Origin: a virus
Lineage: Duplodnaviria > Heunggongvirae > Uroviricota > Caudoviricetes
Direction: 5' to 3' (one strand)
Virus record (IMG/VR): IMGVR_UViG_2529292829_000006
Length of the DNA stretch: 16,346 nucleotides
The first letter of the stretch is position 1, and each line of letters opens with the position of its first letter. Positions 2,954-16,254 of this stretch are shown here, piece by piece. A model generated the notes under the pieces. The model did no database searches and was not told the DNA's origin. It worked only from the letters and a program-made list of their open reading frames with translations. Made by a program: the position numbers and the translations under genes.

Positions 2954-3751
2954 ATGATTGATATTCATGCCGAATTAAACGAATACAAAAAAGATTTTAT
3001 TTCTTTACGTGAATTTCTTGAGGTCGTGCTTAAGGTCGCTGGTGATGATTATGATGTTTCAGATGTCATAACTTGGATACTCAGGAGAATAAGCGGAGAA
3101 CATATCCGCCTGTACACAGTAAATGAATTTAAGCTGTTGGAATCTTTTTGTAACCCGTATCGGGATGAATTTGATAATGATGTTCTTTATAGAAATCTGA
3201 ATGCGGTTCGGAAACGTGGTTGTTTACCTGGTGAGAGGGATGAAAATGGTTTTCTGGTGTCCGGTTATTGGGAAGATCCCGAATTTGAGAACATTGGATT
3301 TATAAGGGGTGAAATTTTCGCAATTTTTCCCGATGTCCTTGACGCGTTAACGAAGCTGGAAGGCGCTAACTCTTCTGAAAATGACGAGGCACAAGGACGC
3401 GATATTGAAAAGAAAGAGTTGCGTACAGAGGATGATTTATTATCCCAAATCGCAATGCTGGAAAAAGAAAACGCAGAGTTAAGGGCAAGGATAGAGCAGT
3501 TAGAGCAAGAGCACCCGATACACTTATATAAATACTGGGATAAAGACCCATTAGCTAAGGCTATTGAGATTAGAAACAGAGAGTGGGCCAATTACGATCC
3601 AGAAAATGATTTTGCCACCAGGGGAAATCAAGAAGCGATAACCAGGGAGCTTAAGCAGTGGGGGGCAAGTAATGCACTTGCAACGCTCATAGAGAGGACT
3701 GCCTGCCCTATTAACCGAGACAACAGCCAAAAGAACGCAAAGCCGGATTAA
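2954..3751 (+). CDS. hypothetical protein, AT-rich cargo gene directly downstream of int, with a central coiled-coil-like segment (LSQIAMLEKENAELRARIEQLEQE)
   Basis: ORF track gives 2948 (GTG); the ATG at 2954 is the more likely start. No family recognised. Low GC relative to neighbours. Confidence 0.6.
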   Translation: MIDIHAELNEYKKDFISLREFLEVVLKVAGDDYDVSDVITWILRRISGEHIRLYTVNEFKLLESFCNPYRDEFDNDVLYRNLNAVRKRGCLPGERDENGFLVSGYWEDPEFENIGFIRGEIFAIFPDVLDALTKLEGANSSENDEAQGRDIEKKELRTEDDLLSQIAMLEKENAELRARIEQLEQEHPIHLYKYWDKDPLAKAIEIRNREWANYDPENDFATRGNQEAITRELKQWGASNALATLIERTACPINRDNSQKNAKPD

Positions 3752-3765
3752 CGCACCATACCGCA

Positions 3766-3945
3766 TACCCTGAGGGTGATTTACTGTTACCCTGAGGGTA
3801 TTTTTTTATCTTCCCCGTCAATTTTACCATCACCCTTAGGGTAGATTTCCTCCAGATTACCATCACCCTTAGGGTAGATTTCCTCCAGATTACCATCACC
3901 CTTAGGGTAGATTTCCTTCCGGTAACCATTAGGCCTGAGGGTATG
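3766..3945. repeat. array of six ACCCT-N-AGGGT palindromes, including three tandem 32-bp repeats (about 3826..3921), upstream of alpA
   Basis: Copies at about 3767, 3789, 3831, 3863, 3895 and a degenerate one at 3932; read directly from sequence. The minus-strand ORF 3711..3929 with repeated WRKSTLRVMVI is a translation artefact of this array. Confidence 0.7.
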
Positions 3946-4011
3946 AAAATATTCGTTATTTCTGTGCCATGATTACCTCGTCAAATTGAGTAGACGTTAT
4001 GAGGTAAATAT

Positions 4012-4209
4012 ATGTCAAATACGCTTATTCGTTTAACAGAAGTTCAGCGTAGAACTGGATATAGCAAGGCATGGATTTATCGCCTTATGGGGCAAGGTAA
4101 ATTTCCTGCATCAGTTAAAATTGGCTCGCGAGCTATTGCTTTCGTTGAGAGTGAAATTGACGAGTGGATTAATCAGCGTATTGCGGAATCACGCGGAACA
4201 GCTACCTGA
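4012..4209 (+). CDS. alpA: AlpA-family phage/island transcriptional regulator (HTH)
   Basis: 65-aa protein with RLTEVQRRTGYSKAWIYRLMGQGKFP ... ESEIDEWINQR, the characteristic AlpA (CP4-57 regulatory protein) pattern; GAGG ribosome-binding site upstream. Confidence 0.85.
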   Translation: MSNTLIRLTEVQRRTGYSKAWIYRLMGQGKFPASVKIGSRAIAFVESEIDEWINQRIAESRGTAT

Positions 4210-4286
4210 TTAAATGGCTACGGGGCTATTGCCCCCAGCTATCCACCAGCAAATAAAAGTAACTTAATTCGATAGCAGGAGTTTTT

Positions 4287-5087
4287 ATGAAATTTCCAAA
4301 AATGCCCGTACAGGGGCGGGGCTTCGTTCGGCCTGAAAACCAGAATCTGCAAAATCTCGGCGAAATTATCCCGATTATTTCCGGCGTTATTGGCGGGAGT
4401 GAAACCAATATTGTTAGTGCCAGAGCGTTACATAAGGCGTTAGGTGTAGGGCGCGTTTTCCGTTCGTGGATCAAGGGGCGCATTGAAGAATACGGCTTCA
4501 CGGAAGGCGTGGATTATGAGGTTGTTGAATATTTGAGCCGACCCGATCCGGTGAGCGCAAAATCTCGCCAGCAAACAGCTCTTGAGTACATCATCACCGT
4601 GAACATGGCGAAAGAACTGGCGATGGTCGAACGTACCGAACAGGGCCGCGCCGTTCGCCAGTACTTTATCAAATGCGAGGAGGAGCTACACAAGGTTGCG
4701 CCTGTTCGTTCCGCAGCGTTACGCCGGGAACTGAAAGCCCGTATCACAGTTGCCAGCTACTTTAAGCCAATGTGTGCCGCGCTGGAGGCGTACCGGGCTG
4801 AACTGGGTAAAAACACACTCCAGCACCACTACACCACGGAAGCGAACATGCTGGCGCGTATCGTGCTGGGTGGCATGACTGCAAAACAGTGGGCACTGGC
4901 GAACGGCATTACAGGCGAACCACGCGACCACATGAGCACGTTGCAGCTTGAGCACCTTTCTTACCTTGAGCAGAGCAATATCACGCTGATTGAGTTAGGC
5001 CAGGACTACCACCAGCGGAAGGCTGAATTAATTCGTCTTTCGCAGCGTTGGTTAGCCCGTCGCATGGAGGAAAACAGCCATGTGTAA
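4287..5087 (+). CDS. phage antirepressor-like protein (AntA / KilA-C-type region)
   Basis: AGGAG 7 nt upstream of ATG; segment NIVSARALHKALGVGRVFRSWIKGRIEEYGFTEGVDYEV resembles antirepressor N-terminal domains, and TALEYIITVNMAKELAMVERTEQGRAVRQYFIKCEE resembles KilA-C/ANT regions. Assigned from memory of family patterns. Confidence 0.65.
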   Translation: MKFPKMPVQGRGFVRPENQNLQNLGEIIPIISGVIGGSETNIVSARALHKALGVGRVFRSWIKGRIEEYGFTEGVDYEVVEYLSRPDPVSAKSRQQTALEYIITVNMAKELAMVERTEQGRAVRQYFIKCEEELHKVAPVRSAALRRELKARITVASYFKPMCAALEAYRAELGKNTLQHHYTTEANMLARIVLGGMTAKQWALANGITGEPRDHMSTLQLEHLSYLEQSNITLIELGQDYHQRKAELIRLSQRWLARRMEENSHV

Positions 5088-5804
5088 CGCTCTGACCGTT
5101 ACAAAAAGAGAAAGCGCCCCGTTGCCGGAGCGCCTTTGTGAACGAATAGCCTACTGCGCCATATTGCTTACTGTCTACGAGGCAGATTATAGCGTTGTGG
5201 TCGCACAGAGTGAAGGCGCTGATCACCGTTACTACAGCACGCCAGAAATGCAGAATATTTTGCTGCAAAATGTCGTTGGTCACACTGTCCGGAAAGCAAA
5301 AAATTTTGCTGGTGGCGCGACTGATGCGATTTTGTCAGGTCGCCAGGTGCTGATCAATCTGATGTCTGATTTCGTTCTGGATAAAACAAAGGCGACCGCA
5401 GAGGGCCGCCAGTGGGAAAGCTACATACTTGAACGCATCGCCAACAATGCCAGATTTGCGGCTGGTGGGCAATGTGTCAGCTTTGCACCAATGACTCTAT
5501 GTTTAACTGAGGGTCATTATGGTGAATATGCTGGCTTGCTGGTGGGCTATTCCTGCTCTTTAACATTGCCATGCCGCGATGTTTTCCAGGTATGCGACCC
5601 CATTTTTGTGCGCCTGTACTCTTTAAGGAATTTCTCAAGGATAAACGCACAGGGCGCGAATCTGTTTGACTCATGCTCGTACGCTATCTTTCTGCGCTGT
5701 CTTTTCCGTGCCGGTGATGGTGTATTGGTTGATTTTTTGTTGGTCATGGCGCAGCCCTGTAAAACGATGCACCGTAGTTCCTCACACCACGGCGCTGGTG
5801 ATGG

Positions 5805-5984
5805 TTACTCCTGTTCTTTGGCCTTGCGGCGCTGGCGGTATTCAACTTCTCGCTTTAATGCTGCTGTTACAAACTGCCCTGTACTTTCACCAGGCATTTT
5901 TACCGCCTCAACATTGTTCATAACTTCATGCGGAACCCTTGCCGCAACTGTTTGTGATTTTGCGTTTACTGCTTTTGTCGCCAT
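5805..5984 (-). CDS. small (59 aa) basic protein, candidate ribbon-helix-helix (Arc-like) transcriptional regulator, divergent from the replication operon
   Basis: Hand translation of the minus strand: MATKAVNAKSQTVAARVPHEVMNNVEAVKMPGESTGQFVTAALKREVEYRQRRKAKEQE; SD AAGGGG 8 nt upstream of ATG; below the ORF-track length cutoff; operator-like palindromes lie immediately upstream. Confidence 0.5.
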   Translation of the reverse strand: MATKAVNAKSQTVAARVPHEVMNNVEAVKMPGESTGQFVTAALKREVEYRQRRKAKEQE

Positions 5985-6029
5985 GTTGTGTACCCCTTAC
6001 AAAAAACAAATGCAGTATGCAGGAAAAAA

Positions 6030-6110
6030 AATAAGTGTTCAACACTTGACGTGTTTAACACCTGGGCTTAAATTGGTGTTCAACACCTTGTTGATGCAAG
6101 GTGCAGAAAC
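6030..6110. promoter_or_regulatory. three copies of the palindrome GTGTT-N-AACAC (6035..6045, 6051..6061, 6076..6086) in the divergent intergenic region; candidate operator/promoter
   Basis: Read directly from sequence; lies between the minus-strand small gene (start 5984) and the plus-strand small-gene chain (start 6184). Confidence 0.5.
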
Positions 6111-6183
6111 GACAACGCCCCGCAGTGGTGGCACACATGCAGGGCGTCTAACCACCAACGATAGCAAGAGTATCGAGGTAGCT

Positions 6184-6387
6184 ATGAGAAATCATACCAC
6201 ACACCCGCAAGGGCGGGACTCGCACAACCTGAATAAATACATCTGGCGTTTTATCGCCCTGAGCACGGCACAACCGCGCGTAATTCACATCGAGGCCACC
6301 AGCGAACAGGAAGCACGCCAGCAATCTCCTGATGGCTGCGTGATGGTATTCGCCGCCCGTATTCGCCAGGAGGTGGAACATGTGTAA
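6184..6387 (+). CDS. small hypothetical protein (67 aa), first gene of a translationally coupled chain
   Basis: ATG at 6184 with GAGG upstream; MRNHTTHPQGRDSHNLNKYIWRFIALSTAQPRVIHIEATSEQEARQQSPDGCVMVFAARIRQEVEHV; stop overlaps the next start (ATGTGTAA). Confidence 0.45.
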   Translation: MRNHTTHPQGRDSHNLNKYIWRFIALSTAQPRVIHIEATSEQEARQQSPDGCVMVFAARIRQEVEHV

Positions 6388-7385: not shown

Positions 7386-7676
7386 ATGAAAAAGAAAAAT
7401 TCTGGCTTTACTGCCAGCGGCCTCTCTCGGCCTGAAATCCGCCCCGGTGATATTTTCCGGGACACCAGACGCGGGGGACGGGTGGTTATTCGTCACGTTA
7501 CGCCAGGCAATATCACCTACCGCCGTGAGGCTTACGAATATGACTGCGTAATGCCGCGCCGTCAGTTTGATCGTGATTTTATTGTGGTGGAAAACAAACA
7601 ACAGGCAGTGGCGAGACGTGCAGCCACGAATATTAAAAAAATCCGGGCAATGTTGGTTGCGGGAGGTAAGAAGTGA
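7386..7676 (+). CDS. small basic hypothetical protein (96 aa)
   Basis: Stop overlaps the GTG start of the primase/helicase gene (GTGA). Confidence 0.55.
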   Translation: MKKKNSGFTASGLSRPEIRPGDIFRDTRRGGRVVIRHVTPGNITYRREAYEYDCVMPRRQFDRDFIVVENKQQAVARRAATNIKKIRAMLVAGGKK

Positions 7677-9478
7677 AAAACGCACCGAGTCTAAAATATC
7701 AGCCGAAGGATAAATTCACTGAGGTAATCATTTTTGCCGGGATGGATGCTTACGCCCATGCTCAACACTGGATTGAAAGTGAAGGACGAAAACACGGCGA
7801 TAACGTGCCTCCTGTTTACCTGGGGCCAAAGCAACTGGCAGACCTGGCGAATATCCGCATTATTGACGAGAAACGCCGTTTTGCGCGTGTCTATATCGCG
7901 GGGGAGATAGAGCCAATCCAGATCAATACTATCGCTGAAAAGCTGGCGCTGGCTGGCGTACAGGAGGCGAAATTATACAAAGGTATCACCGACCAGGAAC
8001 CGGAGAACTGGCGCGACTACCTGCAACGGATCCGCGAACAGGCTGAGCACGGGGAAGTTTCAGTGATGAAATTAGCTACAAAAAATAGTGGTCTACCCAA
8101 GCCTGCATTAAATCAGATGGGAGCCAGCCAGAGAGGGGAAGTGTTACTTGAACATTATGGAGGAGCACTGGCGATAAATGATGATTCTGATGTAGTTCAC
8201 CATTACAACGGAATTGTTTGGGAGCCTGTATCTGATAAGGAACTCCAGCGGTCTATGGCGAAGATTTTTATTGATGCCGAAATTAGTTATTCGCAAAACG
8301 CCATTAAATTTGCCGTAGAGACAATGAAATTGAGTCTACCTGTTATGGGGGGAGCGGACAGAAATCTTATTGGGTTCAGTAACGGTGTTTTTGATATCAG
8401 GACAGGAAATTTTCGGGAACACAACAAAAATGACTGGTTGTTAAATGCCAGTGAATTACCGTTCAGCCCGCCAGAAGAGGGGGAAACGCTGGCAACACAT
8501 GCGCCGAATTTCTGGAAGTGGTTGCGTCGTTCGGTGGCGGATAATGCTCGTAAAGCGGATCGCGTACTGGCGGCATTATTCATGGTACTGGCGAACCGGT
8601 ACGACTGGCAGTTATTCCTTGAGGTAACGGGGCCGGGCGGAAGCGGTAAAAGTGTGATGGCGGAGATTTGTACCATGCTGGCGGGTAAGGCCAATACAGT
8701 ATCGGCGAGCATGAAGGCGCTGGAAGACGCGAGGGAACGAGCGTTAGTGGTGGGATATTCTCTGATTATCATGCCTGACATGACCCGCTACGCAGGTGAT
8801 GGTGCTGGGATTAAGGCCATTACAGGCGGTGACAAGGTGGCTATCGATCCGAAACACAAAGCGCCCTATTCCACGCGCGTTCCTGCGGTAGTGCTGGCAG
8901 TAAACAATTATGCCATGTCATTCAGCGACCGTAGTGGGGGGATCTCGCGTCGACGAGTAATATTTAATTTCTCTGAGGTTGTACCAGAGAACGAACGCGA
9001 TCCGATGCTGGCGAAAAAGATAGAAGGGGAACTGGCAGTAGTGATTCGCCATTTGCTTACACGATTTGCCGACCAGGACGAAGCGAAAAGACTACTTTAT
9101 GAGCAGCAAAAATCAGAAGAAGCACTGTTGATAAAGCGTGAAGGTGATTCGCTGGTGGACTTCTGCGGTTATCTGATGTCGTTGGTTAAATGTGAGGGAA
9201 TGATAGTAGGTAATGCAGAAATAGTGCCATTTAGTCCGAGGCGATATCTGTATCATGCTTATTTGGCTTATATGTCTGCGCATGGTCTGGGAAAACCGGT
9301 ATCACTGACACGCTTTGGTACAGATATGCCAGGGGCAATGGCTGAGTACGGAAAGGAGTACAAGCGGGCTAAATGCACTAAAGGTCCAGATAAAGGGCGA
9401 ACGATCACAAATGTTCTGTTAGATAAAGATGCTGATGGATGGTTACCAGCAACGGCAGGCATTAACGACAGAACATGA
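7673..9478 (+). CDS. phage/plasmid primase-helicase, P4-alpha-family C-terminal domain (island replication initiator)
   Basis: 601 aa; motif LIGFSNGVFDIRTGNFREHNKNDWLLNASELPF (D5-N / P4-family primase C-terminal signature) and P-loop LEVTGPGGSGKS; iteron array immediately downstream. Confidence 0.85.
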   Translation: MKNAPSLKYQPKDKFTEVIIFAGMDAYAHAQHWIESEGRKHGDNVPPVYLGPKQLADLANIRIIDEKRRFARVYIAGEIEPIQINTIAEKLALAGVQEAKLYKGITDQEPENWRDYLQRIREQAEHGEVSVMKLATKNSGLPKPALNQMGASQRGEVLLEHYGGALAINDDSDVVHHYNGIVWEPVSDKELQRSMAKIFIDAEISYSQNAIKFAVETMKLSLPVMGGADRNLIGFSNGVFDIRTGNFREHNKNDWLLNASELPFSPPEEGETLATHAPNFWKWLRRSVADNARKADRVLAALFMVLANRYDWQLFLEVTGPGGSGKSVMAEICTMLAGKANTVSASMKALEDARERALVVGYSLIIMPDMTRYAGDGAGIKAITGGDKVAIDPKHKAPYSTRVPAVVLAVNNYAMSFSDRSGGISRRRVIFNFSEVVPENERDPMLAKKIEGELAVVIRHLLTRFADQDEAKRLLYEQQKSEEALLIKREGDSLVDFCGYLMSLVKCEGMIVGNAEIVPFSPRRYLYHAYLAYMSAHGLGKPVSLTRFGTDMPGAMAEYGKEYKRAKCTKGPDKGRTITNVLLDKDADGWLPATAGINDRT

Positions 9479-9510
9479 TACGAAATTTATAAGTTGAAAC
9501 TTAAAAGTAG

Positions 9511-9843
9511 ACGGTTGGTAGACAGATACACTTAACCCTCTACCAACCATCTACTAATTAATGTTTTGAATTATATAGGTATTTTTAATGTGGTAGAGAG
9601 GTGGACAGTTTATTTTATATTTCTAAACCACGGGGGTATCTAAAAATAGATAGTTATGGGTTCATTTTTAAAATTTTTCTTTTAACTATCTACACTGTCT
9701 ACCATTTAGTAAAAGTCATTAATTATCAATGTATTAATACTGTAGAGAGTTGGTAGACAGTTTGCAGATTGTTTTTTTGTTATGTATTAATAACATTAAA
9801 TAAATCAAACAATTATATCGGTAGACAGTTGGTAGACAGTTGT
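9511..9843. repeat. iteron-type replication origin: at least six copies of (T)GGTAGACAG(TT) in both orientations flanking an AT-rich tract
   Basis: Copies near 9517, 9540 (inverted), 9591, 9690 (inverted), 9750, 9820 and 9831; AT-rich core about 9600..9740; located directly 3' of the primase/helicase gene. Confidence 0.6.
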
Positions 9844-14285: not shown

Positions 14286-15281
14286 ATGGATACGAGAGTG
14301 GCGACGATAATCAAAAATATAGCAATCAAAGGTCTTTTTAAACGGAAGGACATTGATTGGAGTTTAAAAGATGTGAATGTTTTAGTGGGTAAAAATGGCT
14401 CAGGTAAGAGCACGATAATTCAAAGTGTTTTTGCCCTCTTAAAACAAGAATTAAATGAAAGTTTAAGTAATGCTGCGTTGGCTCAAATAACATTGGCCAA
14501 TGGAGGCACAATTACTCACAAAGTTAATTTTCGCGAAATTGACTCTGTCCAGCTTCTAAACCTACTTAATAACCTTAAGAAAAACAGTATTAAAGGTAAA
14601 TCAAAGGGTAAGGAAATAAAGGAGTTAAATGAACTTATTGAGTTGCTTGAATCGAAAAAAGAAGACACTGAAATTAAAGAGTTCGGGATGGGAACTGTTA
14701 GCGTAAGTGATAATATTAAAAACACTAAGCGAATAAATGTTGAGTTAATATCAACTATCAATATGAGTGCCAATTCCATCTATGAATTCAAAAAAAGTGA
14801 TGGTGAGCGCACCACAATTCTTGATATGGAAATTGCTGGTGAATTAGAAAGGTTAAAGAATACTTTCAAAGTAAGTGAGTCTAAAGGTATTCTCATAAAG
14901 GATAAGTTGGAATCAGCTATAAATAATTTATTTGCTGAATGTAACAAAGTTGTTTCTTTTAGTAATGGTAACATTTCTATTAAGATGAGTGATTCTGGTG
15001 AAGATATTAGGTATAATCTTCTTTCATCAGGTGAACGTCAGTTGTTATATATTCTGATTAAAACAGCTAATACTTCATTGGATGAATCTGTCTTGTTGAT
15101 GGATGAGCCAGAAATATCCTTGCACCTTACGTGGCAAGAAAGATTAATAAGCACCATCAAATCAATTAACGATAATTGTCAGTTAATTATTGTTACTCAT
15201 AGTCCTGCAATATTAATGAAAGGCTGGATGGATTCTTTCGTAGATATAAAAAATATTTCAAAGGAATCTTCTCATGACTGA
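14286..15281 (+). CDS. ABC-type ATPase (AAA_15/AAA_21-like, OLD/AriA-like), first gene of a candidate anti-phage pair
   Basis: Walker A VGKNGSGKST, ABC signature LSSGERQ, Walker B VLLMDEPE, H-loop IIVTHSP; AT-rich; possible TATAAT at about 14261; an alternative GTG start at 14298 is possible. Confidence 0.85.
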   Translation: MDTRVATIIKNIAIKGLFKRKDIDWSLKDVNVLVGKNGSGKSTIIQSVFALLKQELNESLSNAALAQITLANGGTITHKVNFREIDSVQLLNLLNNLKKNSIKGKSKGKEIKELNELIELLESKKEDTEIKEFGMGTVSVSDNIKNTKRINVELISTINMSANSIYEFKKSDGERTTILDMEIAGELERLKNTFKVSESKGILIKDKLESAINNLFAECNKVVSFSNGNISIKMSDSGEDIRYNLLSSGERQLLYILIKTANTSLDESVLLMDEPEISLHLTWQERLISTIKSINDNCQLIIVTHSPAILMKGWMDSFVDIKNISKESSHD

Positions 15282-16254
15282 GTTTGAGGATATTAATTTT
15301 AGCGAAGAATATCTTCAGGTATATTGTATTATGGCTGGACACAATGGCTTTGTCTTTGTTGAAGGTCTAAAAGACATTTCTTTCTGGGAAGGCTTATTAA
15401 ACGATAAAGATAATGATATACGTTTTGATATTTGTAACCCTACCAATAAAGGAACAAAAGGGAAACCAGTATTAAAAAAATTCATGAGCCGAGCAAATCG
15501 ATATGCCATATTTGCAATGGATAGTGATTTTGATTATTTATGCCCTAAAAACAGTACAGACTCAGAGATAATTTGCAGTAACAAGTTTATTTTTCAAACA
15601 TTTGTATATTCAAAAGAGAGCATCGAGTTACACCATGAAGTCCTTGAGTATTGTCTTTCTCAAATAAAGATCGCTACTGAAATTAAATTCGATTTTACAG
15701 CATACATTACAGAGTATTCACGGTTGATCTACCCCGTGCTGAAGAAATTTTTATTGCTTAAACAGCATCAAGTTAGACTTGATGACTCAGTTTTCCATGA
15801 AGCGATTGCTCCTTCTGTGCCACGATTAACGAACCAATTTGTTATCAAAAATGCTGTATTTGAAAGTATGCAGCAATCTAAAGCGGTTATTGAAGAAAAA
15901 CTTGATAACCTTATTCAAGATGAATACGATGCTGATAAATTCTATGAGCAGTTATATGATAAAGGATTGAGAGAAGATAACGCCTATCAATATATCAATG
16001 GTCATTTTTTAGCTGATAGAGTTGTCATGCCTGTCATAAAATCATTGATAGAGCAATTGAATATTAATGAAACTGCCTTAATAGTCAAACAATGCAAAGA
16101 TAAACCAACCTTAATCTCGGAAAGAAAGAGTGAGCTAAAAAATATTCTTGAAACTGATTTGAATATTAATACGCTATTACACTGTTGCAAAGAAAAGTTC
16201 AAAACTCCTTGTGCTATTGCGATCAAAGAAAATGTAGCTCGAGCTTTAGCATGA
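15274..16254 (+). CDS. TOPRIM-like (DUF4435-type) putative nuclease, OLD/AriB-like effector candidate
   Basis: 8-nt overlap with the ATPase gene (ATGACTGA); N-terminal FVFVEGLKD (conserved Glu) and AIFAMDSDFDY (DxD) in TOPRIM-like spacing; AT-rich. Confidence 0.75.
   Translation: MTEFEDINFSEEYLQVYCIMAGHNGFVFVEGLKDISFWEGLLNDKDNDIRFDICNPTNKGTKGKPVLKKFMSRANRYAIFAMDSDFDYLCPKNSTDSEIICSNKFIFQTFVYSKESIELHHEVLEYCLSQIKIATEIKFDFTAYITEYSRLIYPVLKKFLLLKQHQVRLDDSVFHEAIAPSVPRLTNQFVIKNAVFESMQQSKAVIEEKLDNLIQDEYDADKFYEQLYDKGLREDNAYQYINGHFLADRVVMPVIKSLIEQLNINETALIVKQCKDKPTLISERKSELKNILETDLNINTLLHCCKEKFKTPCAIAIKENVARALA

Follow-up and report, generated by a model that had tools for sequence, protein, structure and literature searches.

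In the phage-inducible chromosomal islands (PICIs) of Gram-negative bacteria, AlpA is a self-activating master regulator with helper-dependent transcription, and no repressor or inducer of alpA is known (PMC6092414, PMC11773190). Helper-dependent induction and transfer are known only for EcCIMP1, a PICI mobilized by phage Kapi1 (PMC11773190), and for EcCICFT073 (PMC6092414, PMC11773190). How alpA is controlled is an unsolved question in these elements, and a concrete candidate for the control point is described here in a 16,346-nucleotide stretch of DNA (the window; IMG/VR virus record IMGVR_UViG_2529292829_000006). Between int and alpA, the window carries a cassette with an orphan open reading frame (ORF) of 265 amino acids (positions 2954 to 3751, plus strand) and an array of palindromes of the form ACCCT-N-AGGGT. 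We favor the reading, to which we assign a probability of about 0.6 from sequence comparison, that the array serves as a set of cognate operators for the ORF product, which would be the island's own regulator.

Judged by gene content and location, the window is an EcCIMP1-like PICI integrated at tRNA-Thr in E. coli. It is of the same element type as EcCIMP1 and occupies the same integration site (tRNA-Thr beside proA); int, alpA, antA, a primase, PerC, and ProQ are found as in EcCIMP1 and EcCICFT073, and its AlpA is 81% identical to that of EcCIMP1. The tyrosine integrase gene lies beside the tRNA attachment site, alpA follows downstream and is oriented alike, and the island has its own primase/replicase with an adjoining origin. 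No structural-gene Pfam match was found among the window ORFs scanned, several of which have no assignment. The cassette sets the two islands apart: the int-alpA spacer of EcCIMP1 is 430 bp long and contains neither an ORF nor palindromes.

The candidate regulator also resembles the master repressors Stl of SaPIs (pathogenicity islands found in Staphylococcus aureus) and Rpr of Gram-positive PICIs, in that all are satellite regulators encoded beside int, combine a DNA-binding module with a diversified partner domain, and have several sites gating an early operon. Stl, however, is encoded divergently and has an N-terminal helix-turn-helix, whereas here the gene is codirectional and the candidate module is C-terminal, zipper anchored, and of no known fold.

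Helically phased palindromes upstream of alpA

Five perfect copies of the 11-bp palindrome ACCCTNAGGGT occur in the window, starting at positions 3767, 3789, 3832, 3865, and 3898, compared with a chance expectation of 0.21; five or more copies were found in 0 of 200 shuffled sequences, and a scan of the whole window allowing up to one mismatch found no match beyond the five. Sites 1 (3767 to 3777) and 2 (3789 to 3799) read ACCCTGAGGGT, and sites 3 (3832 to 3842), 4 (3865 to 3875), and 5 (3898 to 3908) read ACCCTTAGGGT. Site 6, the promoter-proximal one (3932 to 3942; GGCCTGAGGGT), is degenerate, with two mismatches; it keeps the right half only (CCTGAGGGT at 3934) and is conserved as a half-site among related islands. 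Sites 3 to 5 are carried by a tandem array of the 33-bp unit TTACCATCACCCTTAGGGTAGATTTCCTCCAGA (3824 to 3917), for which Tandem Repeats Finder (TRF) gave a period of 33, 2.8 copies, and a 100% match; over a 40-nt frame the match is 90%, owing to divergence at the 3' end of the third unit. Neither the sites nor the array is assigned a strand.

A first-pass annotation of this DNA had reported repeated palindromes upstream of alpA, and both the repeats and the identity of the gene hold: alpA (4012 to 4209, plus strand) matches the Pfam family Phage_AlpA with E = 2.4e-19. The six palindromes counted there become five perfect ones and a half-site. The positions 3767, 3789, and 3932 were accurate, whereas 3831, 3863, and 3895 were off by 1 to 3 nt. 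The middle three do lie in tandem units, with a period of 33 bp rather than the reported 32; the unit printed there itself has 33 letters.

The start-to-start distances between successive sites, 22, 43, 33, 33, and 34 bp, correspond to about 2, 4, 3, 3, and 3 helical turns, and across the ACCCT arrays, 19 of 20 spacings deviate by no more than 0.25 turn from an integer. The consensus derived from 27 distinct site contexts in 9 loci is t(t/a)ACCCT-N-AGGGT(a/t)a, with a free center and diverged flanks, and the 10 specified bases of ACCCT-N-AGGGT are invariant in all 27. The number of units varies. The region is present in about 150 to 170 of 5,426 complete E. coli genomes, among which the 33-bp unit occurs in 1, 2, or 3 copies, giving arrays of 143 bp (∼20 genomes), 176 bp (∼112 genomes), or, rarely, 209 bp (a handful). 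The same span of copy numbers was found in IMG/VR contigs, and in the L009 lineage, a 22-bp unit was duplicated independently; in either case, the additional sites are in helical phase. Two arrays are present in one genome in 8 of 148 genomes.

The unit contains additional sequence. GGTAGA, with 16 copies in the window against 4.1 expected, is shared by the 33-bp unit and the origin-like iterons at 9482 to 9842, which raises the possibility that the primase-helicase uses the array as a second replication site (crr-like iterons). Phage P4 uses two distant iteron clusters. We regard such a function as extremely unlikely for this array, given that the GGTAGA flank is not conserved (related arrays read GGGTAATC, GGGTATTT, and GGGTAAAA), that the origin iteron GGTAGACAGTT shares only 6 nt with the 33-bp unit, and that the same array accompanies three types of replication protein (D5_N, DUF927, and AAA_25 primases).

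In addition, an ACCAT(C/T)A element precedes each of sites 3 to 6 (3824 to 3830, 3857 to 3863, 3890 to 3896, and 3923 to 3929) and is retained beside the promoter-proximal half-site in L003, L008, L130, L137, and L138. It may be the site of a second factor or part of the recombination substrate that produces the 33-bp duplications.

The motif tracks the C-terminal domain of the adjacent ORF

Comparison of more than 80 related loci showed that the motif tracks the C-terminal domain of the ORF (C-domain) and not AlpA, the integrase, the primase type, or the N-terminal domain (N-domain). Members of the ORF family lie directly upstream of alpA in 12 of the 12 contexts looked up, and the same holds for all 63 of the 63 C-domain genes from IMG/VR. 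In these 63 loci, the motif occurs at 8.8 per kb in the spacers between the ORF and alpA, against 0.10 per kb elsewhere in the loci, an ∼87-fold difference. A search of IMG/VR by the motif alone returned 23 loci, 21 of them such islands; the C-domain ORF ends just upstream of the site pair in 19, and the contig end cuts the other 2. Two features expected of an operator array were found: many copies of one sequence, far above chance, in a regulatory spacer, and covariation of that sequence with the C-domain class or subclade of the linked ORF.

Natural module swaps point to the part of the protein that would read the DNA. The ACCC-N3-GGGT sites are kept with an unrelated N-domain in L006, L009, L130, and L135 to L138, with an AlpA only 30 to 56% identical but the C-domain retained in L135 and L136, and with an integrase 66% identical, at other tRNA sites. 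Conversely, in L004, AlpA (63 of 65 residues) and Int (400 of 404) are nearly identical to those of the window and the C terminus of the ORF is divergent; this locus has no ACCCT sites and carries instead four AATRG-N6-CYATT dyads 22 to 23 bp apart. In L139 and L140, AlpA is ∼80% identical and the leader is the same, and L131 has a homologous N-domain. The ORFs of all three possess another C-domain without a zipper, and their arrays consist of nonpalindromic repeats (CACTTCCAAA, in 5 and 8 copies; TACCAA, in 6 copies) that are mostly direct and spaced mostly in whole turns. Finally, L131 and L136 have similar AlpA proteins but differ in both the C-domain and the motif. By these comparisons, the zipper and C-domain of the ORF are the only part of the element that the motif follows. 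With half-sites ∼6 bp apart, the compact dyad would suit a dimer held by a zipper; the zipper-less sister proteins go with direct repeats.

These swaps bear on who binds the sites. AlpA activates its own promoter in other PICIs, and the array is located just upstream of alpA, as would befit autoregulatory or excision sites of AlpA itself. This explanation is very unlikely, because the motif is missing from L004 with its near-identical AlpA and replaced by other repeats in L139 and L140, is unchanged with the distant AlpA proteins of L135 and L136, and differs between L131 and L136 despite similar AlpA proteins. The first-pass annotation had proposed cooperative sites for a dimeric regulator of the alpA operon and had named three candidate binders, namely, AlpA, the upstream orphan protein, and a minus-strand ribbon-helix-helix (RHH)-like protein. 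The core of that idea is supported by the invariance, enrichment, and helical phasing of the sites; the fold of the presumed regulator is not recognizably DNA binding. Of the candidates, the upstream orphan protein is favored, AlpA is excluded by the natural swaps, and the third is an artifact: the minus-strand ORF at 3711 to 3929 reads RKSTLRVMVIW three times, that is, it consists of translated repeats, with no family match and no RefSeq annotation. The comparison with related islands that had been suggested as a check found the same motif upstream of alpA in islands that share the C-domain, apart from its deeper subclades.

A factor from outside the cassette, either a helper-phage activator or a host transcription factor, could also occupy the sites, given that alpA promoters are helper responsive even without the ORF (as in EcCIMP1) and that the ORF has no recognizable DNA-binding fold. 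This is distinctly unlikely, however: in the same host species and next to near-identical int and alpA genes, the motif changes whenever the C-domain changes, and it persists across distant metagenomic hosts wherever the C-domain does. No homologue of the ORF turned up when 50,697 phage genomes were searched by tblastn, a result that is informative only about where the ORF comes from.

Other candidates were rejected. A second minus-strand ORF (3551 to 3766) has no family match. Integrase arm sites were rejected in view of the distance of 2.3 kb between the array and att and of L004, where Int is 99% identical yet the array differs. A search for a packaging site (cosN, GGGCGGCGACCT, with up to two mismatches) found none. 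Separately, a motif-pair scan of genome contigs yielded, among the matches listed (L010 to L129), many paired ACCCTNAGGGT sequences in Chloroflexota/Anaerolineae, in Roizmanbacteria, and in some Bacteroidota metagenome-assembled genomes. Such genomes from Chloroflexota, Bacteroidota, and the candidate phyla radiation are rich in the palindrome. Some of these metagenome pairs form regular arrays (L030 and L062), and they appear to be unrelated interspersed or tandem repeats.

A modular orphan protein and its RNA leader

The ORF is 265 codons long from its ATG (267 from a GTG at 2948), and the coding sequence is labeled "hypothetical protein" in RefSeq. AlphaFold2 modeling yielded an α/β N-domain, a disordered acidic linker, a leucine zipper forming a long coiled coil (DNA positions 3428 to 3511, plus strand), and a four-helix C-domain (about 3527 to 3718, plus strand); the C-terminal part was modeled with a pLDDT of 90.6 from a 70-sequence alignment. 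The zipper and C-domain together span residues ∼155 to 267, and AIxIRNxEW and IExVACPIxR are conserved segments. Pfam, PHROG, and NCBIfam provided no family assignment, and sequence matches in the PDB were limited to zipper proteins (Max and GCN4) and to the coiled coil (E = 0.06 to 0.8). The putative regulator is reminiscent of bZIP dimers, in which a parallel coiled coil likewise adjoins the recognition region (a putative one here) and a short dyad has half-sites ∼6 bp apart. The order of the parts differs, the zipper here preceding the presumed DNA-reading part, and the PDB matches cover the zipper only.

The family is very small: a set of 5.8 billion proteins contained 31 clusters, and one of 1.84 billion contained 91 representatives. 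Within it, the zipper and C-domain are joined to about 18 unrelated N-terminal types, and the N-domain of the window ORF is also paired with a quite different, zipper-less C-terminal domain. Neither the ORF family nor the array was found described in the literature searched, which included the EcCIMP1 and EcCICFT073 papers. YfjH of CP4-57, the neighbor of the original alpA, was considered as a relative and rejected, being unrelated and divergently oriented.

Upstream of the ORF lies a match to the Rfam int-alpA RNA motif (RF02996; 2870 to 2937, plus strand; 45.5 bits against a gathering score of 35.8), which ends 16 nt 5' of the ATG. The same motif precedes the equivalent ORF in 10 other loci that represent both C-domain classes (L003, at 3048 to 3115; L006, at 3917 to 3984; L008, L009, L130, L131, L133, L138, L139, and L140), at a distance of 11 to 20 nt where coordinates were compared; it was not detected in L004, EcCIMP1 (L005), or L137. 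As the family name implies, the motif is found between int and alpA, but here, it is positioned directly upstream of the regulator ORF and not of alpA. Because it adjoins that ORF both in the window and in the 10 related loci, the RNA is probably the leader of the orphan regulator gene rather than an alpA-associated small RNA.

Sites 1 and 2 double as a terminator

Judged from sequence and predicted folding, sites 1 and 2 together with the following T-run form the intrinsic terminator of the ORF (3765 to 3808, plus strand). The hairpin (3765 to 3801) begins 14 nt past the stop codon, has a predicted free energy of −23.9 kcal/mol (z = −6.4) and a 15-bp stem with G·U pairs in its extension, and is followed by AUUUUUUUAU (T7 at 3802 to 3808). 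The features of a Rho-independent terminator are all present, that is, a GC-rich hairpin, an immediate U7 tract, and a position just past the stop. At sites 3 to 6, there is no U-run on the 3' side, and the fold of 3820 to 3950 has a z score of only −3.0, which derives from pairing between copies. A terminator at this position makes biological sense because int and the ORF share the direction of alpA, a self-activating gene, and transcripts running on into it would fire the island.

Equivalent hairpins were found in L003, L008, L130, L135, and L136, where the centers of the paired sites are complementary (A/T, G/C, G/C, C/G, and ATA/TAT, respectively), and L184/L185 show a compensatory double change, ACCGTGAGGGT/ACCCTCACGGT, between the paired sites. 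Because complementarity is kept in this manner, selection acts on the hairpin itself.

The palindromes might then act at the RNA level only, as terminator or attenuator hairpins between the int-ORF transcript and alpA, with no protein reader. The stable, G·U-containing stem with its U7 tract, the complementary centers, and the compensatory double change would all be accounted for, as would the covarying terminator stems of the "EIEKIACPI" clade. For the array as a whole, such an explanation is nevertheless unlikely. RNA structure alone gives no reason for the same 10 nt to be invariant among elements with proteins 30 to 50% identical, sites 3 to 6 lie past the terminator without a U-run, the nonpalindromic direct repeats of the sister cassettes cannot pair with each other, and whole-turn spacing is a property of DNA and not of RNA. 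An RNA role would fit sites 1 and 2 as a second function.

A hairpin-plus-array layout with another motif was also observed: in one C-domain subclade (L208, L211, L214, L218, L220, L223, and L224), the terminator stem covaries, with the CTATATAG core kept, and two or three copies of CCTATAT follow the stem.

The putative alpA promoter and the proposed switch

Alignment of the alpA-proximal regions identified a TGn plus CATGAT-like element that is conserved between islands with different arrays. In the window, it reads TGC plus CATGAT (3965 to 3973, plus strand) and is a putative extended −10 element of alpA, with no recognizable −35. If this assignment is correct, site 6 would be centered near −44 and sites 5 to 1 near −78, −111, −144, −187, and −209. 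A leader block common to islands with different arrays, CTCGTmAA...TAGACGTTAyGAGGTAAAyAT (3977 to 4011, plus strand), follows. It includes a conserved inverted repeat, CTCGTmAA...TTAyGAGG (the window, L130, L138, L139, and L140), whose 3' arm overlaps the Shine-Dalgarno sequence and which could be a site for AlpA or serve in translational control. A leader hairpin masking the ribosome-binding site was considered and discarded, its stability in the window not exceeding that of shuffled sequence (z = 0.27).

In the favored model, the regulator would dimerize via its leucine zipper, and its conserved four-helix C-domain would read the compact dyad ACCCT-N-AGGGT. Dimers on helically phased sites, 2 to 4 turns apart, would bind cooperatively, filling the perfect distal sites first and then the weak half-site at about −44 beside an alpA promoter that lacks a −35; this occupancy would decide whether alpA fires. 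The highly variable N-domain would serve as the input module, presumably sensing a helper-phage product. As RNA, sites 1 and 2 would form the terminator hairpin and shield autoactivating alpA from read-through originating in int and the ORF, and gain or loss of 33-bp units would add or remove in-phase sites and so tune the switch. What we infer from the sequence is the direct binding of the protein, its cooperativity, the sensing step, and the direction of its effect on alpA. Comparable hierarchies of multiple in-phase sites, strong at a distance and weak beside a promoter with a poor −35, are those of OmpR at ompF and ompC and of lambda CI at OR2/PRM; there is no homology to these systems, and the alpA start assumed here is a predicted one.

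As to the sign, activation triggered by the phage seems to us slightly more probable than repression of the Stl type. In favor of activation are the distal location of the strong sites, a promoter-adjacent site that is weak but conserved and in a class II-like position, the lack of a −35 in the promoter, and the diversification of the sensor alongside an unchanging DNA-binding module and operator. As a Stl-like master repressor, the ORF product would act on the same sites, silencing alpA through cooperative occupancy or wrapping between about −210 and −44 until a helper-phage protein that binds the variable N-domain inactivates it. A positively autoregulated alpA needs something that keeps it off, and cooperative multioperator arrays are typical of the repressors of temperate elements; moreover, in the cassettes with the other C-domain, the proximal repeat overlaps the inferred −35/spacer region. 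The combination of a constant DNA-binding module with ∼18 N-terminal types also parallels the diversification of Stl proteins toward different phage inducers (PMC9927489, PMC9638917). We nonetheless consider repression the less likely sign, though a serious alternative. The strongest sites are located 80 to 210 bp upstream, with only a degenerate half-site near the promoter, and an inferred promoter without a −35 suggests a need for activation. The regulator gene is codirectional with alpA, whereas stl is divergent. Furthermore, one operator and module shared across many sensors would dominantly cross-repress coresident islands, and two arrays do coexist in the 8 genomes mentioned above.

Several observations weigh against the favored model. 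EcCIMP1 has no such ORF or array, and yet its alpA is helper inducible. The C-domain has no significant structural neighbor, and no recognized DNA-binding fold was found in the ORF. No consensus sigma-70 promoter was found in a scan of positions 3500 to 4350, and the alpA promoter is placed solely by conservation. The ACCC-N3-GGGT motif is absent from 30 of the 63 IMG/VR C-domain loci. The compensatory changes in L136 and L184/L185 imply selection on the hairpin and not solely on protein sites. Finally, the C-domain coding sequence abuts the array, so that physical linkage contributes to their coinheritance. With respect to the last point, linkage alone would not be expected to keep an exact 11-mer where the C-domains are 35 to 58% identical. 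The 30 loci without the motif are deeper C-domain subclades that have the same layout and motifs of their own (AGGGTGA-N16-TCACCCT; CCTATAT; ACCGTGAGGGT with ACCCTCACGGT). Inducibility of EcCIMP1 without the cassette suggests that the latter is one of several solutions at this control point and no universal trigger.

A broader proposition is advanced tentatively and at less than even odds, namely, that the orphan ORF founds a hitherto unrecognized family of modular, satellite-specific regulators, each built from a swappable sensor, a zipper, and a DNA-binding domain with a novel fold, that link helper infection to alpA in many Gram-negative PICIs, with the array (sites 1 and 2 of which are also a terminator) setting the threshold through unit copy number and the int-alpA RNA serving as a leader. 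Confirmation of the cassette as proposed would add a DNA-binding fold missing from Pfam and the PDB, explain the genomic context of the orphan Rfam int-alpA motif, and offer a way to approach helper specificity in islands carrying defense systems, such as the PARIS-like pair described below, and virulence regulators (PerC).

Island context and decayed relatives

The element is flanked by proA and tRNA-Thr on one side and by a defense gene pair on the other. In order, it comprises int, the int-alpA RNA motif, the orphan ORF, the array, alpA, antA, an Icd-like gene, a D5-type primase gene, iterons, ProQ/FinO and PerC genes, and an AAA_15/21-DUF4435 pair. The tRNA-Thr gene (1369 to 1444) is on the attachment-site side, with the proA flank as in EcCIMP1. 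The tyrosine integrase gene int, identified by family search, spans 1611 to 2825 in the orientation of alpA. The primase gene (7673 to 9478; D5_N/DUF5906/Pox_D5 in Pfam) is directly followed by an origin-like region (9482 to 9842); it holds several GGTAGACAGTT-type iterons in both orientations with AT-rich stretches between them.

Between antA and the primase gene, the gene model is uncertain. A 435-amino-acid ORF (5080 to 6387, plus strand) matches the "transcriptional repressor" PHROG phrog_6196 over its last 90 residues, which coincide with the Icd-like gene of RefSeq; in the identical genome, RefSeq has only this 405-bp gene plus small minus-strand genes in the region. P4-type immunity RNAs were found 3' of alpA/antA in other loci, C4 (Rfam) in L003, L005, L009, L131, L133, and L138, accompanied by isrK in L003, L005, L131, and L138; an Rfam scan of the window found neither RNA above threshold.

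Two E. coli genomes contain altered versions of the island. In L001 (E. coli MB06173), which is 100% identical to the window over 3600 to 4300, two IS3 copies enclose a truncated and rearranged island, with the primase gene a pseudogene and the ProQ/PerC segment inverted; the window has the intact arrangement. In L002 (E. coli 52F4), the cassette is decayed: the ORF and the array are kept, but only the first 8 codons of alpA remain, fused to a RepA-helicase pseudogene. At the distal end of the island in the window (14286 to 16254, plus strand), an AAA_15/AAA_21 ATPase (331 amino acids) adjoins a DUF4435 protein (326 amino acids), which we take to be a PARIS-like (AriA/AriB) antiphage pair.

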